From contig CAYGXQ010000005.1 in assembly GCA_964354025.1 (NCBI GenBank), positions 3,366 to 67,365 on the forward strand: a stretch of DNA of 64,000 nucleotides, written 5' to 3'. The DNA comes from an uncultured Gammaproteobacteria bacterium (GTDB lineage Bacteria; Patescibacteriota; Microgenomatia; 2-02-FULL-39-11). The translations under genes were made by a program, and so were the position numbers. The notes under the pieces are model-generated. The model saw only the letters and a program-made list of their open reading frames with translations, was not told the origin of the DNA and did no database searches. Positions 9,221 through 60,917 of the stretch are shown here, in pieces (within the stretch, counting starts at the first letter, position 1; the number at the start of each line of letters is the position of its first letter).

Positions 9221-9276
9221 TTAGCGTTTAGCTCCTAGCGTTTAGCGTTTCGTTTATAACTAGACGCTAGACGCTA
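9221..9276. repeat. Composite heptamer repeat: (TAGCGTT)n half followed by (CTAGACG)n half
   Basis: tagcgtttagctcctagcgtttagcgttt...ctagacgctagacgcta. Copies of the same family lie at 37037-37107 (inverted) and, split, at 37781-37813 plus 37959-37990. Confidence 0.7.
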
Positions 9277-10554
9277 TTTAAATAATTTTCTAAATCTTTC
9301 TTCTTGTTTATACGGTCCTATTATAGCAAGGTTCAGCCGGTTTTGTCCAAAGATATTTTCCGCAACTTCCTGTACTTGGGCCGAAGTCACTTTATCAATT
9401 TTCTCCATAATTTCCTGCGGAGTGCGGATATTTTTTTCCAAAAGTTCGGCCGTCCCGAAAAGCGAAGCGACATTGTGACTGTCTTCCAGTTCGAGAGTCA
9501 GTCTGCCTTTGAGATATTCTTTGGCTTTCCCCAATTCCTCTTCGGAAACCAGTTTATCAGCCATTTTTTGGTATTCGCCAATAATTACTTTGATCGCCTC
9601 ATCAATCCGGCCCACATCCACTCCCGCCTGGGTGACGAAATTACCAACGTCTGTGTATTTTTCTGTAGCTGACCGGACATAATAAGCCAGTCCCCTCTTC
9701 TCCCGCACTTCGATGAAAAGCCGGCTTGACATCCCGCCGCCCAAAACGCTGGTCAAAACTCCCAGAGCGTATCTTTCCGGATGAACCAAAGGATAAGCCC
9801 GCACTCCCAGACAAAGATGCGCCTGTTGGGTGTCTTTGTATTGGACCAGCAATCCCGGTACCTTCTGACCATCATCAACAGTTTCCGCTTTCTCCACTTT
9901 CCTCTTCCCCCACTCCCCAAAATATTTTTTCATTAAATTTATAATTTGTAATTTATAATTTGTAATTTTGTTAATACCTCCCGCAATCACCACCACCGTA
10001 TTCCCCGGCGTATACAATCTGTCCATATAACTAACGAAGTCTTTTCTTTTCACTGACGAAATCACTTCTTTTTTTCCGATAATGTCTCTGCCCAATTTCG
10101 TGTCGCCGTAAAGGAGATTTTCGTAAAGGTCGCCCACTTTTCTCATCGGCAAGTCCTCATACATATTGTATTCTTCGATAATGACGCCTTTTTCTTTAGC
10201 AATCTCTTTTTCATCCAATCGGGAGTGTAACAAAATATCTGATAATATATCAATCAATAAAGGAAGATGTTTCACTGCTGCTTTTATATAATATCCGGTA
10301 TGATCTTTGCTGGTGAAAGCATTGGACTCACCGCCGATGCCATCAACGATCGAGGAAATTTCAAGAGCCGTCGGCCGTTTCTTTGTTCCCTTGAAAGCCA
10401 TGTGTTCAAGAAAGTGCGACAATCCATTGATCCCCTTTTCCTCGAAGCGTGAACCAGCACCGACCAAAACCAAAACCGTCACCGACTCCACCGAAGGCAT
10501 GGGAACAGTGATCAGCCGGAGACCGTTAGTGAGGGTATGTGTTTGGTAGTTCAT
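9274..10554 (-). CDS. M16 (pitrilysin/insulinase) family zinc peptidase
   Basis: Inverted zinc motif HFLEHMAFKGT (HxxEH); length 426 aa; carries an in-frame heptamer tract at 9935-9975. Confidence 0.85.
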   Translation of the reverse strand: MNYQTHTLTNGLRLITVPMPSVESVTVLVLVGAGSRFEEKGINGLSHFLEHMAFKGTKKRPTALEISSIVDGIGGESNAFTSKDHTGYYIKAAVKHLPLLIDILSDILLHSRLDEKEIAKEKGVIIEEYNMYEDLPMRKVGDLYENLLYGDTKLGRDIIGKKEVISSVKRKDFVSYMDRLYTPGNTVVVIAGGINKITNYKLQIINLMKKYFGEWGKRKVEKAETVDDGQKVPGLLVQYKDTQQAHLCLGVRAYPLVHPERYALGVLTSVLGGGMSSRLFIEVREKRGLAYYVRSATEKYTDVGNFVTQAGVDVGRIDEAIKVIIGEYQKMADKLVSEEELGKAKEYLKGRLTLELEDSHNVASLFGTAELLEKNIRTPQEIMEKIDKVTSAQVQEVAENIFGQNRLNLAIIGPYKQEERFRKLFK

Positions 10555-28361: not shown

Positions 28362-29726
28362 TTATCCCCACAGCCACCAGGGGATAAGATAAACCGGTAA
28401 ACCGTCTGCCTTGATAAATTGCAAATCTCCATTGTATACGACCACTCCTGCTTTTATTCCTTTTTGTGTTTTCGCGTAGAACCTTAAATTATTGATTTTT
28501 TCTTTCTCAACTCTTTCAGACATCGTCATCTCAACAGGAATTCTTTCGTTTTCACCCCAGCGGATGATTAAATCAATTTCCCGTCCGGCATAGTTGCGGA
28601 AATAATGGACATGAGGCTCAAAAATTTCATTTTTAGCGAAAGCCAAAAAACTGTTTAGGATGATTGTCTCAAAAATTCCGCCGCTTGAACGTGAGTCTAA
28701 AACATTCAGAAGTGTTTCCCGGCCTGCCAGGAAATTGGTTATTCCTGTATCAAATAAATAGCACTTCGGGCTTTTGACTATTTGGGAGTAAGGATCAATA
28801 TCAGGGGTCAACGTCTGCAGTACAAAAGTATTTTCCAGGATCTGCCGGTAATTTTTGACTGTTTTCACGTTAATCTGCGTTTGCCGGGAATAGTTCTCAT
28901 AATTTAATATCCCTCCGGCATTCAGGCTGAAAATCTGCAGAGTCTTTTGGAAATTTGATAATTCATGGACCAGACCCGCCTGGCGGATATCTTTTTCCAA
29001 ATAGGTGGTAACCGCGCTTTTTAGGAGCTCAAATTTGCTGTTTTTATCGTCCTTCTGCCAGATGCCGGGTAGAGCGCCATAAACTAAAAGTTCGTCGCGG
29101 ATAAGTTGGATTTCTCTTTTATACTTAAAAAGCAAGGCGTTTTTCTCCCGCAAAAAATCCTCATTTAAATTATCGAGTTTCCCGGGGAAAAGCGAAGGTA
29201 ATGTCAGGTTTAATTTACTTGACAATATTTCTCCGATTGAAAGCGGTTGGAGATAGACATATTGCGCCCGCCCTGCCATTGATTCGGCGGTTTTTTTCTG
29301 GATTTCCAAAGACGCGGAACCGGAAAGAATCACTTTAATCTTTTCCCCAATCGTATCATGCCAGATCTTTACTAAGTCAAAAACATCAGGTGCTTTTTGC
29401 GCTTCATCAATCACGACTAAAATTTCGCTTTCCAGACGTTCAAAAGTAGTACCCAGTTGGGACTCTATCTGTTTTTGCAGGAAATAGAAATCACTTTTAA
29501 CTTGGTTTTGCAAAAGGATATCATCGAAAAGAAAATAAAATGTCTTGAGTTTGCTCTTTTTGGCAAAGTTTTTTACCAGCGTAGTCTTGCCTGTCTGTCT
29601 GGCTCCTAAAACTGCTACAATGTAGTTTTGTGACAAATAGTGCTCGACTATTTTCTCAGCGGTTCTTCCGAAATATTGTTTAATTTCCGCCATAATAATT
29701 ACGTATTTTAAACAAAATTCAGTCAA
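28362..29726 (-). CDS. AAA+ ATPase of the type with a C-terminal DUF4143-like region
   Basis: Walker A VLGARQTGKTTL; Walker B-like LVVIDEAQ; the true start is probably the internal MAEIKQY. Confidence 0.75.
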   Translation of the reverse strand: MTEFCLKYVIIMAEIKQYFGRTAEKIVEHYLSQNYIVAVLGARQTGKTTLVKNFAKKSKLKTFYFLFDDILLQNQVKSDFYFLQKQIESQLGTTFERLESEILVVIDEAQKAPDVFDLVKIWHDTIGEKIKVILSGSASLEIQKKTAESMAGRAQYVYLQPLSIGEILSSKLNLTLPSLFPGKLDNLNEDFLREKNALLFKYKREIQLIRDELLVYGALPGIWQKDDKNSKFELLKSAVTTYLEKDIRQAGLVHELSNFQKTLQIFSLNAGGILNYENYSRQTQINVKTVKNYRQILENTFVLQTLTPDIDPYSQIVKSPKCYLFDTGITNFLAGRETLLNVLDSRSSGGIFETIILNSFLAFAKNEIFEPHVHYFRNYAGREIDLIIRWGENERIPVEMTMSERVEKEKINNLRFYAKTQKGIKAGVVVYNGDLQFIKADGLPVYLIPWWLWG

Positions 29727-32210: not shown

Positions 32211-32243
32211 ACAACCCCTCCCCCTCTCCAGCGGGGAAGATTA
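32211..32243. repeat. Hairpin repeat family CCCCTCYCC..TTTCCGGCGGGGRA, copy a, at the 3' end of a minus-strand gene
   Basis: Four related copies: 32211-32243, 33201-33237, 33779-33809 and 34124-34150. Confidence 0.6.
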
Positions 32244-32918
32244 TTCTTTTGGCTTAATCCGAAGAAGTAGTTTGCGGGAAAGATTTTCATAGAATTTCAC
32301 AAAGTCAGTTTTATTTAACGGTATTTTTAATTCAGGAATAATGTTCATCTGTCTTGTATCTGCCATGCAATTGACAAAATGAAATTCAGATAAACCTGTA
32401 TCTTTTTGCCTGGACAGTTCAAACATCTTGTCAAAAGATAAATCAGTTTTTTTAAAAATCATATATAAATCTATATAATCTTTCGGTTCCAGTCTGCCGA
32501 AAACAGCCAGTATCTTATTGGAGGCAATATTAATAAGCGAATCCACTCTTACTCCTTCAATAGTGACAATCTCTCCAAAATGCCTCGGTTGTTCATGTAC
32601 GAAATCGATTCTTTGAATCCAGCGGTTATTTTTCTCCTGAAGGTAAACTTCATTATATGTTTTTGTCTGAACTTTTATGGAAACGAGAGAATTAGTCTTA
32701 TCGGCAATCTCTTTTAATACATCTGACAAAACTTCCGTGTTATATTCATCAAGAGAAAAAAAGTCAAAATCTTGACTTTTCCTGTGACCTAAATAAAAAG
32801 CCGCGAGGGCGGTTCCCCCTGTCAAGAAAAACTGCCGGCTAATCGGATAAGAAAAGAAAAGTTTAAGTATTTCTACCTGATGCGGAAGTAATACCGGATT
32901 ATTTTTAAAATTAAACAT
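32241..32918 (-). CDS. Nucleotidyltransferase of the AbiEii/DUF1814-like (GGTAL) type
   Basis: FFLTGGTALAAFYLGHRKSQDFDFFS motif; 8 nt overlap with the upstream small WDYD gene. Confidence 0.65.
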   Translation of the reverse strand: MFNFKNNPVLLPHQVEILKLFFSYPISRQFFLTGGTALAAFYLGHRKSQDFDFFSLDEYNTEVLSDVLKEIADKTNSLVSIKVQTKTYNEVYLQEKNNRWIQRIDFVHEQPRHFGEIVTIEGVRVDSLINIASNKILAVFGRLEPKDYIDLYMIFKKTDLSFDKMFELSRQKDTGLSEFHFVNCMADTRQMNIIPELKIPLNKTDFVKFYENLSRKLLLRIKPKE

Positions 32919-34216: not shown

Positions 34217-34780
34217 ATGACATTTCTTGAACTGCGAAAGCGGATAAAAGCCAACATCTTCACCTACCTGGACGTCGTGAAGCTATTCCCGGAAGATAAT
34301 CCGGAGCTGGTCAAAACCCAGCTTAACCGCTTCAGCACCAAAAAACTGATCATCGGCATCAAAAGAGGGCTTTACTGTTTTGAACCTGAAACGGTAGACG
34401 AATTTGAATTGGCAAGCCGGCTTTATCAGCCTTCTTATATCAGTCTTGAAACGGCTCTGAACTATTACGGAATTATCCCAGACGTACCACAGGCTATCAC
34501 TTCGATCACCCTGACCACAACCAAGAATCTCACTAATGCCTTTGGCAATTTTTATTACACGAAGATCAAACCTGTCCTCTATTTTGGCTTTTCCAAACTG
34601 AAATCAACCGACAGCGAAGGATATTTTAATCTTGCCAAAAAAGAAAAAGCCCTGCTGGACTACTTTTACATCCGCAAGATAAAAAGATTGGATAGCTTGA
34701 GATTAAATCTGAAAGAAATTAATCTGGCCCAATACCGAAGATACAGAACCATTTTCCCAAAATGGTTGCCGCAATTATGA
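34217..34780 (+). CDS. AbiEi-family antitoxin/transcriptional regulator
   Basis: SYISLETALNYYGII-type motif; 19 nt overlap with the following AbiEii-like gene. Confidence 0.65.
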   Translation: MTFLELRKRIKANIFTYLDVVKLFPEDNPELVKTQLNRFSTKKLIIGIKRGLYCFEPETVDEFELASRLYQPSYISLETALNYYGIIPDVPQAITSITLTTTKNLTNAFGNFYYTKIKPVLYFGFSKLKSTDSEGYFNLAKKEKALLDYFYIRKIKRLDSLRLNLKEINLAQYRRYRTIFPKWLPQL

Positions 34781-35574
34781 ATTACCTTATTGACTCTTTT
34801 AACCAAATTCTGGAATTTGCCGGTCGTTACAGCCTACCTCCCACTAAAAAGCGGGCTATATTGCGCGAATACCTCCAATGCAAAATACTCGAGCAAATCT
34901 ATCAGGAAAAAGAATCTCTGAATATTCTTTTTATCGGAGGGACATCTCTTCGGCTACTTTATGATCTCGACAGGTTTTCCGAAGATTTGGATTTTGACGT
35001 GCAAAATATTTCCTCCGGTTGCGTTGATCTACTGATTAAACGTATCTGTAAAAATCTGGTTAAAGAAAATATCGAAACTTCTCTCTATAAAAACGTGACT
35101 GACAAAAAAGTCTATTATGAACTTCGCTTCAAACATGTCCTTTTTCCGCTTAATATCAGCAAAAATATAGAAGAAAATTTAAGCATCAAGCTGGATTTTG
35201 AAAAATATTGGTTGGCGGAAAAAAAAGAGATAAAGCTATTAAACCGATACGGCTACCTGGTCAATTGCCTGACAATTCCCCTTGAACAGCTGCTGGTACA
35301 GAAACTTCACGCCTATCTTAGCCGGACGCAGACGCAACCAAGAGATCTTTACGATATTACCTGGCTTGTTTCTCATGGAGCAACGCTTGATAAAACTTTT
35401 ATGAAAAAGAATAAAATGGATAAAGATGCCGTCAATTTAGCTAAACAGAAATTTGAGAAAGAAAAAGGAATGCTTGCGACACTGAAACAAAAATTAAGAC
35501 CGTTTCTGATAGATGAAAATAATATCCGGAAACTGGATCTGTTTAACCAAGTTTTAGCTACCTTGCAAGGTTGA
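34762..35574 (+). CDS. AbiEii/AbiGii-family nucleotidyltransferase toxin
   Basis: ILFIGGTSLRLLYDLDRFSEDLDFD motif; its stop codon lies in the TGA spacer of the ACCTTGCAAGGT-TGA-ACCTTTAAAGGG palindromes. Confidence 0.75.
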   Translation: MVAAIMNYLIDSFNQILEFAGRYSLPPTKKRAILREYLQCKILEQIYQEKESLNILFIGGTSLRLLYDLDRFSEDLDFDVQNISSGCVDLLIKRICKNLVKENIETSLYKNVTDKKVYYELRFKHVLFPLNISKNIEENLSIKLDFEKYWLAEKKEIKLLNRYGYLVNCLTIPLEQLLVQKLHAYLSRTQTQPRDLYDITWLVSHGATLDKTFMKKNKMDKDAVNLAKQKFEKEKGMLATLKQKLRPFLIDENNIRKLDLFNQVLATLQG

Positions 35575-35988: not shown

Positions 35989-37002
35989 ATGATTACTTTT
36001 CTCAAAAAACGCTATAAGTTGATCCTCATCATCGCCCTCCTGGTTTTCGGCGGCTTTCTCTGCTACCGTAATTTCTTCGCGGCCAAAAACGGCAAGAAAG
36101 TCGACTCCGTCAAAGTCAAAAGAGGCACGCTTGAGGAAATACTGACCATTTCAGGCCAAGTTGAAGCCGACGAGAAAGTAACTCTCCGTTTCCAAACCTC
36201 CGGCAGACTGGCCTGGGTAGGGGTCAAGGAAGGCGACTACGTCAAAAAGTATCAAAGTATCGCCTCGCTGGATCAGCGCGAGATGAAAATGAACCTCGAT
36301 AAATACCTCAATACCTACATGAGCGAAAGATGGGATTTCGAGCAGACCAGAGATGATTATAAAGACACGTTCATTACCGACAAAATCAAGCGGATCAAGG
36401 AACAAACCCAGTTTGACCTGAATAATACGGTGACCGATGTTGAGATCAAAAACCTGGCCATCGAACTGGCCAATATGTTTACCCCGATCGAAGGGATAGT
36501 CACCCGGGTGGCTTCCCCTTACGCCGGGGTGAATGTCACCGCTACCCAGGCGGAATTTGACATCGTCAATCCCAAGACGGTCTATTTTTCTGCCCTGGCC
36601 GACCAGACGGAAGTGACCGAACTCTTCGACGGCAAGCCCGGCGAACTGACTCTCGATGCTTATCCGGAATCAACCTTCAGCGGAACGATCAAGAACATCT
36701 CTTTTAACCCCAAAAGCGGCGAAACCGGCACTGTCTACGCGGTGAAGTTTCTTTTTGACGGCGACAATACCGGCTACAAATACCGGTTGGGCATGGCCGG
36801 TGATTTGAGCTTTGTCACCAAAAGAAAAGAAGACGCCTTATACCTGCCGACAAAATTTGTCAAAGATGATAAATCAAAAAAATATGTCCAAATAAAGAAA
36901 AACGGCCAGACGGAAAAAGTTTACGTGGAAACCGGCATGGAGACGGACAGCAGTATCGAGATTACGAAAGGCGTGACGGAAGGAACGATTGTTTTCGATT
37001 AA
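35989..37002 (+). CDS. Efflux periplasmic adaptor (HlyD/MacA family)
   Basis: N-terminal TM; biotin-lipoyl-like and beta-barrel pattern; first gene of an ABC transporter operon. Confidence 0.7.
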   Translation: MITFLKKRYKLILIIALLVFGGFLCYRNFFAAKNGKKVDSVKVKRGTLEEILTISGQVEADEKVTLRFQTSGRLAWVGVKEGDYVKKYQSIASLDQREMKMNLDKYLNTYMSERWDFEQTRDDYKDTFITDKIKRIKEQTQFDLNNTVTDVEIKNLAIELANMFTPIEGIVTRVASPYAGVNVTATQAEFDIVNPKTVYFSALADQTEVTELFDGKPGELTLDAYPESTFSGTIKNISFNPKSGETGTVYAVKFLFDGDNTGYKYRLGMAGDLSFVTKRKEDALYLPTKFVKDDKSKKYVQIKKNGQTEKVYVETGMETDSSIEITKGVTEGTIVFD

Positions 37003-37036
37003 ATACCACACTCTATAAACATAAGAAAATATAAGA

Positions 37037-37107
37037 GCGTCTAGCGTCTAGATACTAGCGTCTAGTTAAGAAAAACTAAACGCTAAACGCTAGAAGCTAA
37101 ACGCTAA
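37037..37107. repeat. Composite heptamer repeat (inverted orientation) immediately upstream of the ABC ATPase gene
   Basis: Reverse complement equals ttagcgtttagcttctagcgtttagcgtttagttttt..ctagacgctagtatctagacgc. Confidence 0.7.
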
Positions 37108-37111
37108 ATTC

Positions 37112-37783
37112 ATGATACAACTCCAACACATCCATAAAGAATACAAGCTTGACGGGGATGTTTTCGTCGCCCTTAAAGACATCAATTTAAAAATCTCAGA
37201 CGGCGATTTTACGGCCATCGTCGGGCCATCCGGCTGCGGCAAATCCACCCTCATGCACATCATCGGCCTTTTGGATAATCCCTCAAGCGGAAAAATCACC
37301 ATTGACGGTAAAGATGTTTCTAAAATCACCGACGACGACCTATCCAAACTCCGCAACGAATTTGTCGGCTTTGTTTTCCAGCAGTTTAACCTGATAAATA
37401 AACTGACGGTAGCTGAAAATATTCTCCTGCCGACAATTTACTGCCGCAAAAAACTGGATTTTGTCCCCCAGCAAAGAGCCATGGAGCTGATGAAACGCTT
37501 TGAAATAGACTCCAAAGCCAAATCATACCCCAACAAGCTATCAGGCGGTCAGCAGCAGCGCGTCGCCATCGCCCGGGCTCTCATCAATAAGCCGAAACTT
37601 ATCCTGGCTGATGAGCCGACCGGAAACTTAGACTCCAAAACCGGTGAAAAAATCCTTGCTCTTTTGAAGGAGCTAAACGGCCACGACAAAATCACCATCG
37701 TCATGGTCACCCACGACAACCACATCGCCGAAAGGGCTAAAACTCACATCCATGTGCTGGATGGGGAGATCGTTGATAATTAG
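37112..37783 (+). CDS. ABC transporter ATP-binding protein (MacB/LolD type)
   Basis: Walker [10 protein letters not shown]; signature [15 protein letters not shown]; Walker [12 protein letters not shown]. Confidence 0.9.
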
Positions 37784-37813
37784 CGTTTAGCTTCTAGCGT
37801 TTAGCGTTTAGTT
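37781..37813. repeat. Composite heptamer repeat, first half (TAGCGTT)n. A perfect 33 bp inverted repeat of 37074-37106
   Basis: tagcgtttagcttctagcgtttagcgtttagtt; overlaps the stop codon of the ATPase gene. Confidence 0.7.
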
Positions 37814-37850
37814 AATGACAGTAGTTATGCAATGAATATTGATTTAGATT

Positions 37851-37944
37851 GTCATTGCGATCCCGAGTCCGCCAGCTGGCGGATCGAGGGAGAAGCAATC
37901 CCGTCCGAGATTGCCACGGCCAGTCAGACTGGCCTCGCAATGAC
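37851..37944. mobile_element. MITE-like element with 10 bp terminal inverted repeats GTCATTGCGA / TCGCAATGAC, carrying the 16 bp palindrome TCCGCCAGCTGGCGGA
   Basis: TIRs at 37851-37860 and 37935-37944; palindrome at 37868-37883; internal gaagcaatc / gattgcc inverted repeat. Homologous copy at 55998-56078. Confidence 0.6.
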
Positions 37945-37958
37945 ATAGAATAGCATGA

Positions 37959-37990
37959 CTAGACGCTAGCTTCTAGACGCTAGACGCTAA
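37959..37990. repeat. Composite heptamer repeat, second half (CTAGACG)n, separated from the first half by the MITE-like insertion
   Basis: ctagacgctagcttctagacgctagacgctaa. Confidence 0.65.
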
Positions 37991-37993
37991 TTT

Positions 37994-39202
37994 ATGACTT
38001 ACTTTATCTTCATCTTCAAATCCGCTCTTGAGGATTTCAGAAGGAACAAAATCAGGACTTTTCTGACTTCTCTCGGCATCCTCATCGGAGTTTCTTCCGT
38101 CGTCCTTCTCATCTCTTTTGGCTTAGGGCTAAAACAATATATCAAAAACCAGTTTGAATCCTTAGGCACCAACCTTATCATCATCATGCCGGGGAAAATA
38201 CTGGAAGGCGGCAGTTTCAGCTCAGGGGGCGGCGGCATCGGTGGCATCCGCTTTGACGAAAAAGATATTTTGGCTATCAGGAAAGTGAAAAATACCGCTT
38301 ATGTCGTCCCTGTTTACACCAAATCGGTAACCGTTTCAGGCGAAGGAAAGTCGGAAACCGGTACTCTTTACGCCACCACCGCAGACATCTTCCCTATCCG
38401 CAATCTTGAAGTCGAATACGGAAGCTTTTTTGATAAAAACGATGTCGAGAAAAGGAGCAAAAAACTGGTCATCGGGCCGAAACTGGCGGAAAAAGTTTTT
38501 GGCAGTAGCGATGATGCCCTCGGCAAAATCGTCAAGATCGAAAAACAGGCTTTCACTGTTGGCGGCATCTTAAAAAGTAAAGGCGGCGGCGGCTTCGGCG
38601 GGCCCGACTTTGACACTTTCGTCTATATGCCTTATAAATCTGCCCTGGCTTTTAATCCGGAAAAGCAATTCTATACCATCCTCATCAAAGCAAACAACGA
38701 AGAAGCCATCCCGCAGGTAAAAGACGACCTGAAAACCGCTCTTTTGAAAACCTACAAAGAAGACGACTTTTCCGTTGTCGAACAGACGGAGATCTTAAAC
38801 GCCGTCGCCTCAATCTTTGCCATCCTAAATACAGTTTTGATAGCTATCGCCGCAATCTCCCTGGTGGTGGGAGGTATCGGCATCATGAATATCATGTATG
38901 TCTCAGTCATTGAAAGAACCAGGGAAATCGGTATCCGACGGGCTATGGGAGCAACCGGCCGGGATGTGCTAATGCAATTTATTTTGGAAGCGGTCATCCT
39001 CTCTCTCATCGGCGGGCTGATGGGACTGGGATTATCTTTTCTGGTTGTCCTTCTCATCCAACCGTTTTTCCCGGCTTATGTGGACACCACCGCCGTCGCC
39101 ATCGCCATCGGCGTCTCTTCGGGGATCGGCATCATCTTCGGCGTGTTTCCGGCAAAAAGAGCGTCTGATCTGTCTCCGATTGAGGCGATAAGATATGAAT
39201 AA
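37994..39202 (+). CDS. ABC transporter permease, FtsX/MacB family
   Basis: N-terminal TM, large periplasmic domain and three C-terminal TMs; conserved GIMNIMYVSV.ERTREIG.RRA.GA segment. Confidence 0.85.
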   Translation: MTYFIFIFKSALEDFRRNKIRTFLTSLGILIGVSSVVLLISFGLGLKQYIKNQFESLGTNLIIIMPGKILEGGSFSSGGGGIGGIRFDEKDILAIRKVKNTAYVVPVYTKSVTVSGEGKSETGTLYATTADIFPIRNLEVEYGSFFDKNDVEKRSKKLVIGPKLAEKVFGSSDDALGKIVKIEKQAFTVGGILKSKGGGGFGGPDFDTFVYMPYKSALAFNPEKQFYTILIKANNEEAIPQVKDDLKTALLKTYKEDDFSVVEQTEILNAVASIFAILNTVLIAIAAISLVVGGIGIMNIMYVSVIERTREIGIRRAMGATGRDVLMQFILEAVILSLIGGLMGLGLSFLVVLLIQPFFPAYVDTTAVAIAIGVSSGIGIIFGVFPAKRASDLSPIEAIRYE

Positions 39203-39253: not shown

Positions 39254-40633
39254 CTATAGGTTCATAGAAAATAAAAATAGCTCAACGGGTATTAAACAAA
39301 GGTTTTTCCTCTGCAGATAATCATTTTTCGTAACAACAGTAAGCTTTTCTTTAGGAAATTTATCCATAAACCAGGAAAACTCGGCAGGATTAACGCGGTT
39401 TTGGAATTTTACCTCAAAATAAGACAGTTTCTGTTTATCCCTACCGATAAAATCAATCTCTCTGTCTTTTAACCGGCCGTAATAAAGATTTGGGAAGATA
39501 CGCCATAAATGCATCGCTGTCAGATTTTCAACTAAATGTGAAAGAAAAACCGGTTCAGTCAGTTTTTTCCTGGTAAACGAATACTGTTCATCGCGCATGT
39601 TTTCAATCTTCGCTAAAAAGCTCATGAGGATAAACGTGTCATTAAAATAAAACTTGTGGTTTTTCTTATAATCAGCCTTCCTTTGCGCCAGTTCAAAATA
39701 ATCCAGGTTGAAAACGGAAAACATTTGAGTCAGAAGATCAACATATTCAACCGCGCTCACATAAGAGGACAGACCGGCATTTTTGGCTAATTCGTAATAT
39801 GAAACCGGTGTCGTCAGCGAGCTGATCATTTTGGCAAAAATCAAATCGGCGGTTTTTTCCTGTTTGCCGAACTTATGCAAGTCGCCTATCACCCAGGAAG
39901 TGTAAATATCGGCAATCTCCGAGCTGATAAATCCTTTCTCGTAAAATTCGTTGATGACTGCCGGGAAGCCGCCGGTAAGAAGATAATCTTTAAAAAGGGC
40001 TTTTAATTTCGGCAGATGCAGCTTTTCCCGGCCCTTTTGCCAATCCCTGCTTTCAGGATAAACCATCTTCGCGAAATCCTTAAACAATAAAGGCAGAAAA
40101 ACAATGTCTTTTTCTTTGATATTGCCCCGCCTGCCGGGAAGCCTTTCTGAGGAAAACTTCAAATCAACGGTTGATGAGCCGGTCAGGAAGAAAAGCGTTT
40201 TTTTGCCCCACTGGCTTTCCGCGAAATCCTTGATTGTTCTTTGCCATTCTTTTACAAACGAGATTTCATCCAGAAAAACATAGTGAAAATCAGCCGTTTC
40301 TCCAAATTCCTGAAAATACGCATTGATGATATCAGAAAGCTCAAGAAAGGAAGAAACCGTGTTCAGGGAATAATAAAAAATGCCTTTGGGATTGACTTTA
40401 TCCTCCAGAAGAAGTTTTTTTATTATCTGCTTTGAGAGAGTGGTTTTACCTATTTGTCTAGGTCCGCGCAAAGTCATGACACCCGGCTCGTTTTCCGGAA
40501 AAGCGGAAAGAAGAGGGTGGATGAACTGAAATTTGCGGCCGGCGACTTCTTTAAGCTTATCGTCAGCCAAAATCAGCTCTTTCTCTCCCCACCAGGGATT
40601 TTTCTGGTATAAGGATAAAATATCAGGCGACAT
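39254..40633 (-). CDS. AAA+ ATPase with a DUF4143-like C-terminal region (second paralog)
   Basis: Walker A LRGPRQIGKTTL; Walker B VFLDEISF. Confidence 0.75.
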   Translation of the reverse strand: MSPDILSLYQKNPWWGEKELILADDKLKEVAGRKFQFIHPLLSAFPENEPGVMTLRGPRQIGKTTLSKQIIKKLLLEDKVNPKGIFYYSLNTVSSFLELSDIINAYFQEFGETADFHYVFLDEISFVKEWQRTIKDFAESQWGKKTLFFLTGSSTVDLKFSSERLPGRRGNIKEKDIVFLPLLFKDFAKMVYPESRDWQKGREKLHLPKLKALFKDYLLTGGFPAVINEFYEKGFISSEIADIYTSWVIGDLHKFGKQEKTADLIFAKMISSLTTPVSYYELAKNAGLSSYVSAVEYVDLLTQMFSVFNLDYFELAQRKADYKKNHKFYFNDTFILMSFLAKIENMRDEQYSFTRKKLTEPVFLSHLVENLTAMHLWRIFPNLYYGRLKDREIDFIGRDKQKLSYFEVKFQNRVNPAEFSWFMDKFPKEKLTVVTKNDYLQRKNLCLIPVELFLFSMNL

Positions 40634-40774: not shown

Positions 40775-41257
40775 TTAATCATTTAACCATGTACAATTTG
40801 GTGAGGTAGCACCGTACTTTTTTCCACATTCATTTCTAAAAAATTGATAAATTCCATCTTTTTCTTCCCGCTTAAGGGGCTTTCCCTCTATGCCTTCCAC
40901 CTTAGATATAACTGATTTACAATTTGCAACTGTATTATTCCCATTCAAGCAATTTATTCCTGCCTCTTTGAAGTTCTTTATTATCTCTGCTGTTTGTCCA
41001 AGCTGATTACCTGCGTCTTGTATTGCACCACCCGCTGTTTGACCTGCCTGTACGATTTGTTGTCCTGCTTGTTGTACCGGAGTGCTCGGAGAAGAAGTAG
41101 AAGATCCTCCCCCACAGGCTATAAGCCCACTATCGGTTTTCCCGCTTCTCACTGGATGATCACCAACATCACATGATTTTGCAAAATATTTTATTGGTTC
41201 TTCTGCTGGTGGTGCTGGAGCACAACTGCTTAGTATACTTGCTGCCAATCCGGCCAC
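40775..41257 (-). CDS. Putative secreted protein or lipoprotein (GTG start) overlapping the 3' end of toxin gene 1; candidate immunity protein, or the result of a frameshift
   Basis: ..AASILSSC lipobox-like sequence followed by a Cys-containing Gly/Gln-rich region; 89 nt out-of-frame overlap with 41169-41900. Confidence 0.4.
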   Translation of the reverse strand: MAGLAASILSSCAPAPPAEEPIKYFAKSCDVGDHPVRSGKTDSGLIACGGGSSTSSPSTPVQQAGQQIVQAGQTAGGAIQDAGNQLGQTAEIIKNFKEAGINCLNGNNTVANCKSVISKVEGIEGKPLKREEKDGIYQFFRNECGKKYGATSPNCTWLND

Positions 41258-41900
41258 TACTAATGTTGTACCAAAATTTAAAACTGCTTAATGTTGCACT
41301 GCCTAGGATCACCGCGGCGCTCACCAAGGCATCCTTTCCAGTAATTGCTGCTCCTTTGCTTCCTGTTCTCTCAAAAAATTTAGGATAAGATTCCTGCGCT
41401 TCTTTACCTACCCATATACCCTGTCCGGTATTATTTCTTTTTCTGCAGTTTTCCTCTTCTCCATAAGCACATTCCCAATTTCCTGAAGGATCATTTCTTA
41501 TAATGGGATTTCCTTCGACGTAGGCAAACCGGTTTGGCGAGTCCGCCAGCTGGCGGACGGAGTCCGCGGAAACGAAACGGGAAAGAACAGGATCGTAGTA
41601 GCGGGCGTTATAGTAAGAAAGAGTTGTTTTATCATCTTTAATTTGACCAGTGTAGGCACGTTCAGTGGCGGGATTTGAGGAATTTGGGGAACCGTAGGGA
41701 GAATATTTGGATTGGGAGATATTGTTTCCTTTATCATCCGAGACAGCAATCACTGATCCCAGATTGTCGGTATGAATATAGTAAGTAGATTCGGTGTAGG
41801 AAGCGTGAACAGGATGAGCAATGATAAATGATAAATTATAAATTACAAATGAAATTACAAATGACAGAATGCAAAATTTAGAATTTAGTAATTTAAACAT
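41169..41900 (-). CDS. Sec-signal + RHS-core + short variable tip protein (polymorphic toxin cassette 1)
   Basis: N-terminal hydrophobic signal ending AHPVHA/SY; RHS core motifs YYIHTDNLGSVIAVSDDKGNN...YNARYYDPVLSRFVSADSV...NPIIRNDPSGN. The last ~30 codons look like read-through in a wrong frame. Confidence 0.7.
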   Translation of the reverse strand: MFKLLNSKFCILSFVISFVIYNLSFIIAHPVHASYTESTYYIHTDNLGSVIAVSDDKGNNISQSKYSPYGSPNSSNPATERAYTGQIKDDKTTLSYYNARYYDPVLSRFVSADSVRQLADSPNRFAYVEGNPIIRNDPSGNWECAYGEEENCRKRNNTGQGIWVGKEAQESYPKFFERTGSKGAAITGKDALVSAAVILGSATLSSFKFWYNISSGRIGSKYTKQLCSSTTSRRTNKIFCKIM

Positions 41901-41938
41901 TTAATTTAGCATTTATAATTTATAATTTGTAATTTATT
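41822..41938. repeat. A/T-rich heptanucleotide-periodic tract spanning the start codon and signal peptide of toxin gene 1
   Basis: gataaat gataaat tataaat tacaaat ... tataatt tataatt tgtaatt; 7 nt periodicity over about 115 nt. Confidence 0.7.
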
Positions 41939-41947
41939 AACAGTATG

Positions 41948-43538: not shown

Positions 43539-44789
43539 TTATGGAGTCACCAATGTATTTATCCATAACTTGGTTAAATTGGGATAATGAAGATTATATT
43601 TTTCTGCTGTACCAATATTCGCGACCCATTTACGCCAAACATCATTTCTCCCACTATAACTAAAAATCCATGATTGTCCTTGATGTATCTCTGGCATAAA
43701 CCAACCTGTAAGTTGGCAGGCCGCACTTTCCTTTATGTCTTGTTGGTAATCAGAAATGGAATTATCAATATAATAAGAACCATAATCTTCTTGCGGTCCA
43801 CTCTTTTGTTTATTCGATTTGGGAGGAATCGCCAACTTACCATAAATATTTTCCCAATATACAGAATCTTTTGTTGCTGCTTCTTGGTAGCTTTCTTCAT
43901 TAAAATTCTTCAACATAAGATAATGCGTTGCTTCATGAACAAACTCGTGTTCCTGCTGCCATTGAGGTAGTGTAAATGTTCGTGGATCCAAAAAAACTGA
44001 TGAAGGGAAATATTCACCTTCTCTTTCGAAACTATTATTTAAATAATTTTCGCCTATATCTGTTCGATTAATATACAATCCCTTCAGGATATTTGGATTA
44101 TGGGTTATATATATTATTCTTTCGATGCTTTTTTCAATCGATTTAATTTCATTTGTACGCCATGCCCACATACTTCGATAGTATGGATTATTTTTATAAC
44201 CTGGCCATCTATCCGGATTATTTATATCTTCTTCTTTTATTTCCTGGTCTACATTATAAGCAAAGGAAACACCATATTTTTTAGAAATTTTTTGTGCTAA
44301 TTGGAATGATTCATTTGTATCCTTTACATAAGATTCAAATTGTAAATCTATACCTTCATCTGCCCTTTGTCCTCCCGGATCATTCATCATGATCGGATTA
44401 CCACCCACATAGGAGTATCTGTTCAGCTGGTCCGCCAGCTGGCGGACGCTATCAGCCGAAATAAATCTGGATAAAACTGGGTCATAGTACCTCGCGTTAT
44501 AATATGCCAGTTGGGTGTTCTTATCCGCAATTTGACCTGTATATTCTCTTTCAGTTGTAGGTTGTAAGTTGTAGGTTGTAAGTTCATTTCCATATGGAGA
44601 ATACTTGGTTTGTGAGACATTGTTTCCTTTATCATCTGAGACAGCTATCACTGACCCCAGATGATCCTGATGGATATAGTAGGTGGTTTCGGTGTAAGCG
44701 GCGTAGACCGGAGAAATGAATAATCCAATAAACAAATAACCCAATAATCCAATGAATATAACAATGAAACAATGTAGCAATTTATCCAT
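43539..44789 (-). CDS. Sec-signal + RHS-core + HExxH metallopeptidase-like tip (polymorphic toxin cassette 2)
   Basis: Signal peptide; core YYIHQDHLGSVIAVSDDKGNN..YNARYYDPVLSRFISADSVRQLAD..NPIMMNDPGGQ; tip contains HEFVHEATH. Confidence 0.75.
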   Translation of the reverse strand: MDKLLHCFIVIFIGLLGYLFIGLFISPVYAAYTETTYYIHQDHLGSVIAVSDDKGNNVSQTKYSPYGNELTTYNLQPTTEREYTGQIADKNTQLAYYNARYYDPVLSRFISADSVRQLADQLNRYSYVGGNPIMMNDPGGQRADEGIDLQFESYVKDTNESFQLAQKISKKYGVSFAYNVDQEIKEEDINNPDRWPGYKNNPYYRSMWAWRTNEIKSIEKSIERIIYITHNPNILKGLYINRTDIGENYLNNSFEREGEYFPSSVFLDPRTFTLPQWQQEHEFVHEATHYLMLKNFNEESYQEAATKDSVYWENIYGKLAIPPKSNKQKSGPQEDYGSYYIDNSISDYQQDIKESAACQLTGWFMPEIHQGQSWIFSYSGRNDVWRKWVANIGTAEKYNLHYPNLTKLWINTLVTP

Positions 44790-44858: not shown

Positions 44859-45170
44859 ATGCCATTGTGGCATGAAAACGGAAGAACTGTCAAACCGGGT
44901 TTGTCTATACTTCCCTTCTCTGCTACAATAATAATCACTATGGCTCATATCTGGGACTACGATATCAACGAACTTAAAAAGACAGAGCAAGGCAGGCTCC
45001 TTATCCTTGAACGGATGATCAATTTCGGTCCCGACAAGAGAGAAAAGATCAGTCTTTCACAAGTTAAAAAAAATTGGGATAAATTGCATCTGTTCCCGAG
45101 TGCCAAAAAGCTTCTGGAACTTCTGATATGGGGAAAATATCTGTCCTCACCGGAAAACAAAAGATCGTAA
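44859..45170 (+). CDS. Small 'WDYD' protein (probable true start at MAHIWDYD), partner of the decayed NTase gene
   Basis: Homologous to 32911-33159. Confidence 0.4.
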   Translation: MPLWHENGRTVKPGLSILPFSATIIITMAHIWDYDINELKKTEQGRLLILERMINFGPDKREKISLSQVKKNWDKLHLFPSAKKLLELLIWGKYLSSPENKRS

Positions 45171-45478
45171 TAGATGAGATAAAGAAGGAAAAAAACCTGG
45201 CTTCCCGATTCTATCTCACGGGCGGGACCGCTCTTTCGGCATTTCATCTTCAGCACCGCTATTCTGATGATCTGGATCTTTTCAGTGATGATGCCTTTGA
45301 TAAGGAAAAAATCGTTAATTTCATCAAGAGACTGGCCACTCAAAGATTTTTTCCGGAAGCAGGCGGAACTGATAGGGAAAAAGGTGACAAGATAAACTTC
45401 ATAAGGTGTCAAGCCGGTACACCTGGAAGGTGTACGAGTGGACATCCGGCAGGCCGCAAAGAATCTAGAGGAAAATAA
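45128..45478 (+). pseudogene. Truncated or frameshifted GGTAL nucleotidyltransferase (AbiEii-like) gene
   Basis: N-terminal FYLTGGTALSAFHLQHRYSDDLDLFSDD matches 32241-32918; after about 80 aa the sequence diverges into low-complexity residues and stops early. Confidence 0.5.
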
Positions 45479-58841: not shown

Positions 58842-60917
58842 TTACATCTTCTCTACCGTTTCGATCCCGAGGATGAAAAGACCTCTTTTGATAAGGTTTG
58901 CCGTAGTTTGAGTCAGAACCAGACGGAAATCGGATTCCAATATCGTGTGTTTCTGGTAAAAGAGGCTGTAGCTTTGCGCCAGCTCAAAAAGATAAGCACA
59001 GAGAAGGTGCGGCGAGAAAGCCGCGGCCGCCTCGGCGACCACCTCCGGGAAGCGGTAGAAAAGACGGAGAAGTGATAACTCTTCAGTATTAGGTATTAGG
59101 TATTTGGTATTAAGTATTTTTTTGTTTTCTTCTTTTATACCTGATACCTGATACCTGATACCTGATACCTTCTCAGCTTTTCTCATCACGCTCATACACC
59201 TCGCGTAGGCATACATGAGGTACGGCCCGCTGTCGCCTTCGAAGGAAACTGACTTGCCGAAGTCGAAGACGATGTCATTGCCGATGTTGTTTTTGAGAAG
59301 GGCGTATCTGATGGCTCCGAGGGCCACTTTTTCCGCGATTTCTCCAATTTCGGTTCCCCCTTCTGCTTTTCTGTCTGTTTTTGCGATAATCTCCAAAACT
59401 CTTTTTTTAGCCTCCTCCAGAAGCCACTCGAAGGTGATGACGTTGCCCGAGCGCGAAGACATCTTGCCTTCCGGCAGCCTAACCATGCCGTGGGCGATGT
59501 GATAGGCTTTCTCCCCCAATTCCGGCTCGATCTTTTTCATGGCCGCCTTCACCACTTTGTAATATTCGTCTATTTCTTTACCGAAAACATTAATTGATAA
59601 ATCGTATTTGAAATCTTGATATTTGGCCATAGCCAATCCCAAGTCTTTAGCCTCATAGGTAGGCAGACCGAGTTTATTGACAAAAACCCTGGTATGCAGG
59701 CCGTCCTGTTCACCCCGGTAGACGACTCCCCCTTCGCTTTTTTCCAAAACGCCCAGCTTCAAACCCTTTTCCACCAGCTTCATCCCGTACTCGCCCACCC
59801 ACGACTCCGGATAATAGCCGTCGAACTTCGTTCCCAGCCTTTTGTAGATCGTCTCAAAATATTCCAGGCTCCACTTCAAACCTGCCCCGTAGACCTCCCT
59901 GACCTCCTCCAGACGGTCTTCTTTACCATGAACATACTGTTTATAGTCAATGATCGGCTGCCAGCCTTTGTCTTTCTTCAAAATCTCCTGCGCGGCCACG
60001 TAAATAAGGGAATTGATCTCCTTAACCTCTTCCGCAACCTTCTTATCCTCATCAAACTTTATCGTCCCCAAAGCATAACCTTCCCCAAGCAGTTTCTGCC
60101 TTTCGGATATGGGTAACTTCCCAAGCTCGTGAATGTATTTTCTTAATTCTTCTAAATATTCTTTCCCTTTCAGAATTTGTAATTTGTCATTTGTAATTTG
60201 TAATTTAGCTAAAAGTCCGTATAGACTTTTAGCGATATGCATCCCTACATCTCCGTAAAAATCTCCCCGCCAGACGGTTGCTCCGCAGGCTTCAAACAGC
60301 CTGGCGATAGCCTCGCCGATGAAGTTGGAATACATATGCCCGAGGTGAAACTCCTTAAAAGGGTTGGGGTCTGTATATTCAACGGCAATTTTCTTTCCCG
60401 TCATTTGGGCTGTTATGACCGGATATTTCATATCTAGCACTCTCTCCATCTGACTGATAATGCATGGGGTAGCCACAACCAGATTTAAGAAGCCACAGCC
60501 TGCAATTGATACATTCTCCAGGATACTTTTTGGAGAAATAGTCAGATCCGAAGGTACATAACTATCAGCTTTAACTGCTATCGTTTGATCTTGTCCTATA
60601 TATTCATCTATTTTTCGTTTTAGCTTCTCCGCCAACTCAATCGGCTTCATTTTTAGTCTTTTAGCCATGATCATGGCGATATTAGAAGAATAGTCCCCAT
60701 AACCTTTATTTATAGGATGTTCGATAAAAATAGCGGAAAAAGGGATTTTTTCGCCTGTTTCCCCCAAAACCTCCCCTACGGCCTGGCGGATGACGCACCG
60801 CAGCTGGAAAGCAAGAGAGTGCGGATCATCGGTGATGATCTTGGGGAATTTCCTTTCTGTTCTCGGATCAATGGCAAATTTCATAATATATCCTGACACG
60901 CTGGGTGACTTTCTCAA
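58842..60917 (-). CDS. argS: Arginine--tRNA ligase (class I)
   Basis: VEYTDPNPFKEFHLGHMYSNFIGEAIARL (HIGH region) and KMSSRSGNVITF (KMSKS region). Long, at 691 aa, with an in-frame heptamer tract at 60174-60206. Confidence 0.9.
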   Translation of the reverse strand: MRKSPSVSGYIMKFAIDPRTERKFPKIITDDPHSLAFQLRCVIRQAVGEVLGETGEKIPFSAIFIEHPINKGYGDYSSNIAMIMAKRLKMKPIELAEKLKRKIDEYIGQDQTIAVKADSYVPSDLTISPKSILENVSIAGCGFLNLVVATPCIISQMERVLDMKYPVITAQMTGKKIAVEYTDPNPFKEFHLGHMYSNFIGEAIARLFEACGATVWRGDFYGDVGMHIAKSLYGLLAKLQITNDKLQILKGKEYLEELRKYIHELGKLPISERQKLLGEGYALGTIKFDEDKKVAEEVKEINSLIYVAAQEILKKDKGWQPIIDYKQYVHGKEDRLEEVREVYGAGLKWSLEYFETIYKRLGTKFDGYYPESWVGEYGMKLVEKGLKLGVLEKSEGGVVYRGEQDGLHTRVFVNKLGLPTYEAKDLGLAMAKYQDFKYDLSINVFGKEIDEYYKVVKAAMKKIEPELGEKAYHIAHGMVRLPEGKMSSRSGNVITFEWLLEEAKKRVLEIIAKTDRKAEGGTEIGEIAEKVALGAIRYALLKNNIGNDIVFDFGKSVSFEGDSGPYLMYAYARCMSVMRKAEKVSGIRYQVSGIKEENKKILNTKYLIPNTEELSLLRLFYRFPEVVAEAAAAFSPHLLCAYLFELAQSYSLFYQKHTILESDFRLVLTQTTANLIKRGLFILGIETVEKM

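Follow-up and report, generated by a model that had tools for sequence, protein, structure and literature searches.

The window analysed here is a 64,000-nt stretch (43% GC) of contig CAYGXQ010000005.1, positions 3,366 to 67,365, from assembly GCA_964354025.1, a Microgenomates genome of the candidate phyla radiation (CPR). Three paralogous genes on its minus strand, which we call T1, T2 and T3, encode small toxin-like proteins with part of the RHS core, and one loop of that core, between the motifs PYG and TERxYTGQ, holds a different short repeat tract in each. An earlier note, made from the letters of the window, had proposed that heptamer repeats expanded independently at this site while the net length stayed in frame. 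T2 (43539-44789) encodes 416 aa, T3 (45522-46775) 417 aa and T1 (41169-41900) 243 aa. The open reading frame (ORF) listed for T3 has a TTG start and runs on to 46853; the start used here, MVKWINFF, is that of the library protein P0138 (417 aa). All three translations match the hidden Markov model TIGR03696 (RHS repeat-associated core), with 75.0 bits for T2, 71.5 for T3 and 71.7 for T1 against a curated cutoff of 32.5.

The profile of this family corresponds approximately to the last ~115 residues of the RHS shell, matching residues 2040-2157 of TcdB2-TccC3, residues 587-690 of YenC2 and Rhs proteins, the last with E-values down to 5e-22. Invariant core columns include D66 and D90, and the Asp positions of GQxxD and SxD are kept together with the terminal DPxG motif; by analogy with TccC3, we take these Asp residues to be catalytic. 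The core of T1-T3 begins at residue ~26-50, straight after a hydrophobic helix, and runs in the order ...YTESTYYIHTDNLGS...PYG-loop-TERxYTGQ..D..YYNARYYDPVLSRFISADS...NPIMRNDPGG before unrelated C-terminal domains. In T2 an N-terminal hydrophobic helix and the RHS-associated core tip are followed by a divergent C-terminal domain with HEFVHEATH, and the C-terminal domain of T3 carries HEYAHN; these HExxH motifs were spotted by eye only. The C-terminal domains of T1-T3 gave no Pfam match, and those of T2 and T3 no PDB sequence match. Like Rhs/YD polymorphic toxins, the proteins show DHLGS, PYG, xTGQ..D, YYNARYYDP..RFxSxD and NPxxxxDPxG and then an unrelated C-terminal domain. Unlike them, they have no YD-repeat shell (Pfam RHS_repeat gave no match and PF03527 stayed below its cutoff), and the signal peptide or transmembrane helix stands directly before the last ~115 aa of the core. 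The earlier note placed the tracts inside an RHS core; only the C-terminal tip of that core is present. Judged by these profile and motif matches, each of T1-T3 is predicted to be just this tip, with a signal peptide before it and a variable C-terminal domain after it. The protein P0139 shares 83% identity with T3 as far as NDPxG and shows no relation beyond, the kind of break typical of polymorphic toxins. Such "mini-RHS" proteins measure roughly 240-440 aa, and their layout (360-470 aa, core from residue ~25-100) is that of the majority of the closest 150 relatives in a search of 1.84 billion representatives.

T1 overlaps ORF 40775-41257 over 89 nt (41169-41257), and this ORF begins like a lipoprotein (LAASILSSC). 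To go by the reading frames, T1 may be frameshifted or truncated, or ORF 40775-41257 may encode a lipoprotein in its own right, a candidate immunity protein. Because the overlap sits well downstream of the T1 loop, the shortness of T1 is unrelated to the loop. Two small ORFs, 44957-45445 and 40775-41257, lie downstream of mini-RHS genes. On the plus strand, 1954-8778 encodes a 2274-aa RHS-repeat protein whose YD region ends RKNYYADGKLVAVRNFNYLD and then diverges without the DHLGS...RYYDP core. Its relatives are continuous at this place (RKNYYFSGKLVAVKDN..NYIHQDHLGS...), and T1-T3 start, after the signal peptide, at exactly that point. The 1954-8778 protein could be a split or decapitated RHS protein, its core tip and toxin being encoded apart, in secreted cassettes of their own.

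In T2 the loop codons span 44556-44588, between YSPYG and EREYTGQ. Tandem Repeats Finder (TRF) reported a minus-strand array at 44553-44584, with 4.6 copies at period 7 or 2.3 copies at period 14, the latter at 100% match. On the plus strand the array reads AGTTGTA/GGTTGTA and on the sense strand CTTACAA/CCTACAA, twice over; the sense codons GAA CTT ACA ACC TAC AAC TTA CAA CCT ACA ACT give ELTTYNLQPTT. The earlier note had described the tract as (ttgtagg/ttgtaag)x4 from 44554 and as the source of ELTTYNLQPT, and both the tract and its peptide were found; its four units ttgtagg/ttgtaag/ttgtagg/ttgtaag lie at 44555-44582, one base further on. In T3 the loop codons 46545-46583 encode KEALSVKRQAESI, and the array covers 46549-46579 of the minus strand (period 7, 4.4 copies, 83% match), with the sense units AAGCGTT AAGCGTA AAGCGTC AAGCG. 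The string reported for this tract, gcttgacgctttacgcttaacgctt, is present at 46555-46579, not at 46545-46570. The T2 and T3 units are mutually unrelated. T1 carries the loop SPNSSNPA (41667-41690, minus strand), as had been read, although its repeat is not a heptamer: it is a 9-nt tandem duplication (CCAAATTCC/TCAAATCCC; TRF 41673-41691, period 9), with an identity of 0.72 at lag 9 and 0.30 at lag 7. Lag 7 was the best lag in both T2 (identity 0.72) and T3 (0.63), with p<=2e-4; in 5000 shuffles scored at any lag from 2 to 12, the observed value was reached 0 times for T2 and once for T3. TRF scores were 50-64 for T2 and 41-48 for T3. Among 36-nt windows of the 64 kb, 0.45% have a lag-7 identity of at least 0.63, forming 11 regions that cover 1.2% of the window, so that two arrays in one homologous ~40-nt loop are not random placement. 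No RNA structure was detected in the T2 and T3 tracts (z=0.13 and 0.6).

The three loops occupy homologous positions in both the protein and the DNA alignment, as the earlier note had assumed. Around them the paralogs form a mosaic: along the alignment, the first 89 nt match at 94% between T1 and T3 and the following 42 nt at 86% between T1 and T2, and T2 and T3 reach 92% identity starting with the base that directly follows the loop. The array was considered as a recombination breakpoint, and the T2-T3 tract does start right after the loop; the other mosaic boundaries sit elsewhere. A small palindrome, CCGCCAGCTGGCGG within GTCCGCCAGCTGGCGGAC, lies in frame in T2 at 44432-44445 (VRQLAD) and has four exact matches in the window against 0 expected. 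The other copies are in frame in T1 (41543-41556), upstream of T3 (46817-46830) and intergenic (37869-37882). In the DNA alignment the GC-rich palindrome (GT)CCGCCAGCTGGCGG(AC) is a net +9 nt in T1 and T2 relative to T3 and to the relative L001. By its position in this alignment, the site may be a second permissive site in the RHS core, occupied by a different small repeat.

Relatives of the RHS core were compared in 16 metagenomic loci, and TRF was run on 17 related RHS loci. Among species-representative genomes, the best and sole true relative is a Candidatus Microgenomates metagenome-assembled genome (MAG; locus L001, 72%); the other match of that scan (L002, Ruminococcus, 33%) is uninformative. 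No contig encoding exactly T2 occurs in the contig collection searched. Loop length varies across the family, with a canonical form of 11 aa, xTRxxxGxLPT. Relatives with about three extra YD hairpins (L008-L017) have a canonical loop, STRTxxGxLPx, and no periodicity was found in the canonical 33-nt loops of L008, L011, L013 and L017. These relatives were considered as the C-termini of full-length RHS proteins, and this was rejected: they are ~450-510 aa long, each with a signal peptide of its own and some three additional YD hairpins, and the contrast is therefore one between a longer RHS remnant and a core tip only. Relatives reduced to the core tip have longer loops.

These extended loops contain repeats of their own. 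The loop of L005 reads GTATATC GAATATT GAATATA GTATATT, that of L007 and L012 reads GTCAGAC GTCAGAT plus GTAGGAA GTAAGAA GTTAGAA, and that of L010 reads CTATCAG TCATCAG CTGTCAG TCATCAG (unit NNATCAG). The units differ, and each of these loops is periodic at lag 7 with p<=6e-4. An octamer array (AATAACCC...) fills the loop of L003, L006 and P0001, and the orthologous T2 locus of L001 has a GC-rich palindromic insert in the loop, unlike T2. Among 105 distinct loops of the family, the long ones have an amino-acid identity of 14.8% at lag 7, where the remaining lags give 5.5-10% (p=4e-6). Two relatives share an array with the window: P0139 has a loop identical to that of T3, and P0171, at 55% core identity, has STTYPLQPTT for LTTYNLQPTT in T2. 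Period 7 is the commonest TRF period in the 17 loci (27 of 74 arrays), followed by periods 8 and 9. A CAGTCAA x4.4 array also lies in the RHS core upstream of the loop (SQQGTANSQQ; L011 4063-4093 and L015 4175-4205), and so the PYG loop is not the only site of the core that accepts arrays.

The window as a whole is rich in arrays of this kind. A lag scan found 13 period-7 arrays of at least 3 units where third-order Markov simulations predict 0.1, an excess of ~100-fold, and only 0-3 arrays at each other period within 4-16. Most period-7 arrays have 4.3-4.9 copies (30-36 nt by TRF), inside and outside ORFs alike. Once units are brought to a common rotation and strand, 31 of the 136 pairs of arrays differ by at most 1 mismatch, against 2% expected. 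Family A (TTAGCGT / CTAGACG) makes up three intergenic composites, at 9221-9276, 37036-37108 and 37780-37989, in which a TTAGCGT-type arm is paired with an inverted CTAGACG-type arm, as in 9221-9276. Their arms align over ~36 nt and share one irregular unit (GCTTC/GCTCC, or ATA/AAG) as well as their ends, so that the three composites are copies of one dispersed element and did not expand independently. They fold as hairpins (z -3.2 to -7.3), the copy between the HlyD-like and ABC ATPase genes (37036-37108) at -39.3 kcal/mol with z=-7.3. The last 3 nt of the 9221-9276 element are the stop codon of gene 9274-10554, and the first unit of the 37780-37989 element is the TAG stop of gene 37112-37783. 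The T3 array aligns unit by unit with the TAGCGTT/TAGCGTC arm of family A along five units, with TAG changed to AAG in every one; the tie to intergenic composite repeats that had been suggested for this tract thus holds. Family B (AATTTGT / AATTTAT / AATGATA) occurs in an M16 peptidase gene, in the arginyl-tRNA synthetase (ArgRS) gene and at the 5' ends of T1 and of the unrelated ORF 48265-49344. A single mismatch separates the T2 unit (TTGTAGG/TTGTAAG) from TTGTAAT, which is AATTTGT of family B in rotated form. In the M16 peptidase gene the array AATTTAT/AATTTGT (9936-9968, 33 nt, minus strand) is in frame, encodes KITNYKLQII and adds a net +6 aa relative to PDB 3hdi. The T2 tract is best seen as a solo member of a class of heptamer-periodic modules that pervades this Microgenomates genome and its relatives. 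Hairpins are found in the paired arrays, and the arrays of T2 and T3 are solo and unstructured.

Several further observations concern these elements. The loop of the third hairpin (37780-37989) holds a nested 146-nt GC-rich element at 37812-37958 with internal inverted repeats (GTCATTGCGA...TCGCAATGAC), and similar GC-rich inserts split arrays of ArgRS orthologs ('GFGGQA' in P0020, 'PFDSAQGRQF' in L019) and fill the RHS loop of L001 ('SAFAKATADEAG'). The two arms of the paired arrays at 59080-59176 and 37030-37112 differ systematically, one strand having G-U pairs where the other has C-A mismatches. The better-folding RNA is antisense to ArgRS in the first case (-37.7 vs -28.0 kcal/mol) and antisense to the flanking HlyD/ABC genes in the second (-39.3 vs -31.2 kcal/mol). 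At 902-941 there is an intergenic TATTCCG(G) array of mixed 7- and 8-nt spacing whose unit, unlike those of family A, is stop-free on both strands. No transposase or RAYT-like gene is present in the window, and no target-site duplication could be recognised by eye at the three intergenic copies.

The ArgRS gene, on the minus strand, contains three arrays in total. One is AATTTGT x4.7 at 60174-60206, in frame as KLQITNDKLQI (site 1 below); the other two form an inverted pair at 59086-59170, in frame as KVSGIRYQVSGIKEENKKILNTKYLIPNT, of GTATTAG x4.7 and ATACCTG x4.9, the ATACCTG array being 100% perfect. This pair can fold as a hairpin (z=-6.6 on the sense and -8.8 on the antisense strand), and exactly 11 aa, KVSGIRYQVSG, are missing from E. 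coli ArgRS. The window ArgRS is 86% identical to a partial ArgRS of GCA_022866885.1, the MAG that also yields L001, and 44-58% identical to proteins of Gottesmanbacteria and other Microgenomates. With Candidatus Microgenomates and Gottesmanbacteria as the best named relatives, a filamentous cyanobacterium bearing STRR-type repeats was rejected as the host. Of 120 ArgRS orthologs, 21 contain exact 4-aa repeats at a lag of 7, with 26 instances in all; each other lag from 3 to 12 gives 1-5. They cluster at few sites, chiefly the loop between RKA and NPEELSLLR, with examples such as NYELRIKNYELRI, SEIRNPKSEIKN, KLKTQNSKL and EITNDKLQMTNK. Orthologs have KLKTQNSKLKT and similar peptides at the site of 60174-60206; in the DNA of L020, CAAAACT x5.1, 100% perfect, stands where the window has ACAAATT x4.7, and octamer arrays fill a second loop. 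The nearest relative, L019 (86% ArgRS identity), has a different octamer array in an ArgRS loop, divided by a 29-nt GC-rich element, and in another ortholog (P0020) the 'GFGGQA' element lies within an array. Since these arrays sit in frame in an essential gene, a 7-nt step is unlikely to be the unit of change inside ArgRS.

Other arrays encode N-terminal hydrophobic segments. An octamer array, AATAAACC x4.4 by TRF (44719-44753, minus strand), encodes the N-terminal hydrophobic helix of T2, IGLLGYLFIGLF. Inverted pairs of family-B arrays lie on the minus strand at the 5' end of T1 (41820-41939) and of ORF 48265-49344 (49248-49338, encoding MNDKLQITNYKF...ILTFVISFIIYNLSFII), and the 5' ends of these two unrelated genes (41816-41942 and 49244-49342) are roughly 93% identical over ~60 nt. 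In both, the downstream arm encodes the hydrophobic core of the signal peptide, ILSFVISFVIYNLSFII in T1 (41820-41854) and ILTFVISFIIYNLSFII in ORF 48265-49344. TTGGGAT x5.3 gives rise to the signal peptide LGFGVWILGF of L011, L016 and L017. As far as such translations can tell, signal peptides seem to have been supplied repeatedly by repeat arrays.

The genic arrays sit in variable loops or N-terminal hydrophobic segments, and their units are free of stop codons in a way that the intergenic ones are not. Translation of a heptamer array passes through each of the three frames in turn, so that a stop triplet anywhere in the unit ends the ORF. The units of family A have stops on both strands and are found between genes only. 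The perfect in-ORF arrays (AATTTGT, ATACCTG, TTGTARG and AATGATA) are stop-free on the sense strand only, and their orientation is therefore fixed. Imperfect in-ORF arrays vary exactly at would-be stops; in T3, TAG has become AAG in each unit, and the seventh base (T, A or C) avoids an in-frame TAA.

On balance, we think it probable that a permissive loop has repeatedly acquired heptamer-periodic modules that occur throughout the lineage, and that selection keeps those that are in frame and stop-free. The modules are mostly 30-36 nt long, with 4.3-4.9 units of 7 nt, occasionally of 8-9 nt, drawn from few unit families. They would arrive, or be replaced, as multi-unit blocks through ectopic copying, template switching or insertion of a small element, and selection would then retain a net length of 3n and the absence of stop codons. 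The loop would be a hotspot through its tolerance of insertions rather than through targeting, and the peptide ELTTYNLQPT probably just fills the loop, with little or no selective effect. This account agrees with arrays that are dispersed in families, clustered in size, present in essential genes and turning over between close relatives. It keeps the core of what had been proposed from the letters: different short-period repeat tracts fill the same loop in paralogs, the T2 and T3 units are unrelated, and relatives carry other heptamers or octamers there. The independence claimed for the tracts applies between array types and not to each gene, given the loops shared with P0139 and P0171. A codon hotspot special to the toxins is contradicted by the arrays in ArgRS, M16 peptidase, signal peptides and intergenic hairpins. 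Expansion on the spot by 7-nt steps is unlikely because every intermediate of +/-7 or +/-14 nt is a frameshift; the intergenic arrays are, moreover, copies of dispersed elements. Insertions with lengths of 7n constrained to 3m were also envisaged, yet the loops measure 24, 33, 36, 39, 42 and 48 nt against the canonical 33 nt, with arrays of 4.3-4.9 units. These lengths, together with net gains of +0, +6 and +11 aa in ArgRS and M16 peptidase, also ruled out a simple insertion quantum of 33 nt.

A number of results weigh against repeated acquisition by a permissive loop. The T2 loop has the canonical length of 33 nt, the gain at ArgRS site 1 is ~0 and that in M16 peptidase only +6 aa; so slight a net gain resembles overwriting more than plain insertion. 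Arrays of the same family stand at the same site in distant orthologs (NTKY in ArgRS; P0171 and T2), and ArgRS site 1 holds perfect arrays with different units between orthologs, which suggests long persistence with concerted homogenisation and would need slippage or conversion within the array. Some constraint on the peptide is possible because the T3 loop is identical in P0139 at 83% core identity. The solo arrays showed neither defined ends nor a target-site duplication, and no enzyme that could mobilise them was found in the window. The exposure of the loop is suggested by the alignment only, the AlphaFold2 model of T2 (from an 18-sequence alignment) being poor, with a mean pLDDT of 45. 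Among the family representatives, 41 of 83 short-form proteins and 3 of 32 with a long N-terminus have a loop of 13 aa or more, a difference whose Fisher p=4e-5 carries no phylogenetic correction.

The main rival is local slipped-strand expansion from a chance proto-repeat, with a preference for 7 nt and with only the in-frame outcomes surviving. Polymerase slippage is the published account of heptamer excess (Mrazek 2007, as cited in PMC4679880 and PMC4692102), and to it has been ascribed that heptanucleotides are the most over-represented class of long simple sequence repeats (SSRs) in many bacteria. Several features of the arrays fit it. All T2 units, and likewise all T3 units, differ from the family consensus by the same substitution; orthologous ArgRS arrays are homogeneous within and different between species, a concerted evolution typical of slippage; and the first unit of the ArgRS site-1 array aligns with an ancestral K-x-K-x-x-N. 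However, steps of +/-7 and +/-14 nt shift the frame and should be lethal in ArgRS, and a slip of +21 needs more than 21 nt of existing repeat. The account also leaves it unexplained that few unit families recur at unrelated loci, that intergenic arrays are copies with identical irregularities, and that sizes cluster at 4.3-4.9 units instead of following a broad distribution like that of VNTRs (variable-number tandem repeats). We therefore regard slippage as possible but unlikely as the origin of the arrays, and it probably contributes to their homogenisation.

A bolder proposal, which we hold to be distinctly doubtful, is that some dedicated Microgenomates activity writes or copies ~33-nt heptamer patches in single events and that slippage is not their source. 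Candidates for it would be template-switching or primase-polymerase-like repair, or a tiny non-autonomous mobile element. If this were true, loops of essential proteins would be overwritten in frame by arrays that stay perfect over long divergence. The same activity would have generated fresh coding sequence, among it the hydrophobic signal-peptide cores by which orphan RHS core-toxin cassettes became secreted mini-toxins.

Adaptive hypervariability, in which selection for surface-loop diversity (evasion of immunity or recognition) uses the arrays as raw material, seems improbable. The loop is indeed the most divergent part of a mosaic core, with T2 and T3 at 92% just downstream and T1 and T3 at 94% upstream, extended loops are found in the 41 of 83 short-form proteins against 3 of 32, and polymorphic toxins are known to diversify. 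However, ArgRS and M16 peptidase, which have nothing obvious to gain from diversification, carry the same arrays in their loops. In addition, the RHS core tip is a conserved carrier and not the interface between polymorphic toxin and immunity protein, and the T3 loop is identical in P0139. Phase variation, with gain or loss of a single heptamer toggling the toxin gene, is highly improbable. The coding heptanucleotide VNTR of neuO (AAGACTC, RLKTQDS; PMC3046976) works in this way, and toxin genes are plausible contingency loci. Yet the tracts here are short (4.4-4.6 units) with alternating or imperfect units, where a contingency locus of the neuO type has a long perfect tract and alleles one unit apart, some of them out of frame. 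Arrays of this class also lie in the essential ArgRS gene, relatives with the same array keep the same or an in-frame length (P0139, P0171), and the limited sampling of loci yielded no frameshifted allele; the shortness of T1, with its ORF overlap far downstream, does not bear on the loop. Finally, ordinary divergent loop sequence without repeat structure is almost certainly wrong, even though loop length varies across all RHS proteins, since both tracts are periodic at lag 7 (p<=2e-4), reach TRF scores of 50-64 and 41-48, and in T2 repeat a 14-nt unit at 100% identity.

The mini-RHS cluster lies among many defence and toxin-antitoxin modules. Between T1 and T2 there are two toxin-antitoxin pairs, one PIN/MazE-like and one BrnT/CopG-like, and the same BrnT/CopG pair is also found 3' of the T2 ortholog in L001. 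The window further contains two AAA_14/DUF4143 ATPase genes (28362-29726 and 39254-40633) and two genes for AbiEii-type nucleotidyltransferase toxins (32241-32918 and 34762-35574). At 35989-39202, genes for an HlyD-like protein, an ABC ATPase and an FtsX/MacB-like permease are arranged like an operon, each gap between them being occupied by a hairpin repeat element, and a second MacB-like permease gene (46917-48146) adjoins T3.

Heptamer repeats of the short tandemly repeated repetitive (STRR) type, recorded since 1990, and long SSRs, recorded since 2007, reportedly form an unexplained excess in bacterial genomes. In 2008 Elhai and colleagues reportedly described small dispersed repeats within heptamer arrays of Nostoc, and the GC-rich elements nested in heptamer or octamer arrays here (P0020, the 29-nt element of L019 and 37812-37958) are like that case, in another phylum and with other elements. 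The arrays of the window consist of head-to-tail 7-nt units that are longer and commoner than composition predicts, as in heptanucleotide long SSRs and cyanobacterial STRR, and so resemble the genome-specific 7-nt tandem excess of GGGNATC in Xanthomonas and Nostoc and of TAACTGA in Beggiatoaceae. As with the G-rich arrays (PMC4692102), there is a preference for ~4 units and for inverted pairs; because the units here are not G-rich, the preference for ~4.5 units is not due to G-quadruplexes. As with the mainly intergenic repeats of PMC4679880, arrays lie near gene ends and supply or overlap stop codons. Both papers (PMC4692102, PMC4679880) give known heptamer repeats as intergenic and under-represented in coding regions, with units other than 3n disfavoured in ORFs. 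Unlike these, many arrays here lie in frame inside genes, ArgRS among them, and the host is a CPR bacterium. We found no report in the literature of heptanucleotide repeats in CPR, Patescibacteria or Microgenomates, and heptamer arrays in frame in genes appear to be undescribed for CPR.

Coding repeats of other systems offer closer parallels. The poly-psi tract of neuO, in prophage CUS-3 of E. coli K1, is a heptanucleotide VNTR (AAGACTC) in a coding region, and the segment it encodes is disordered and tolerated (PMC3046976). There, as here, a 7-nt unit read in three frames gives a 7-aa period, and RLKTQDS resembles the KLKTQNS and KLQITNY of this study. The neuO tract has 2-93 perfect copies at the 5' end and acts as a phase switch, whereas the present arrays have ~4.5 units, are often imperfect and internal, and occur in many genes; among the loci of relatives, a limited sample, no length polymorphism was seen. 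Rickettsia palindromic elements stand in frame within genes for proteins, housekeeping ones among them, at places that the fold can accommodate (PMC10969869, citing Ogata 2000). Like them and miniature inverted-repeat transposable elements, the modules here are small dispersed repeats with hairpin potential when paired, in frame in unrelated genes: families A and B are dispersed over ArgRS, M16 peptidase, T1-T3 and ORF 48265-49344, as selfish in-frame repeats would be. Unlike Rickettsia palindromic elements, which are ~100-150 nt long and not tandem-periodic, they are ~33 nt long with 7-nt units, and in T2 and T3 they are solo without a palindrome. Borg tandem repeats produce amino-acid repeats and disordered regions, are enriched in extracellular or membrane proteins and have independent origins in homologs (PMC9879509), and they too give new, repeat-derived protein segments. 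All genic Borg repeat units are divisible by three (PMC9879509). The units here have 7 (or 8) nt, unlike those of Borgs, so that the frame rotates and both total length and freedom from stops must be selected.

For the biology of these bacteria, the arrays are a source of protein novelty in very small genomes, as loop fillers and possibly as signal peptides. Orthologous sites with different perfect arrays are natural experiments on how heptamers form. Repeats are the source of peptides such as KLQITNY, KLKTQNS and NYELRI in Patescibacteria proteins, and these peptides can lead alignments and domain calls astray. For the RHS field, the window and its relatives display an abundant mini-RHS architecture of signal peptide, core tip and toxin, in which one loop of the core is free to vary.

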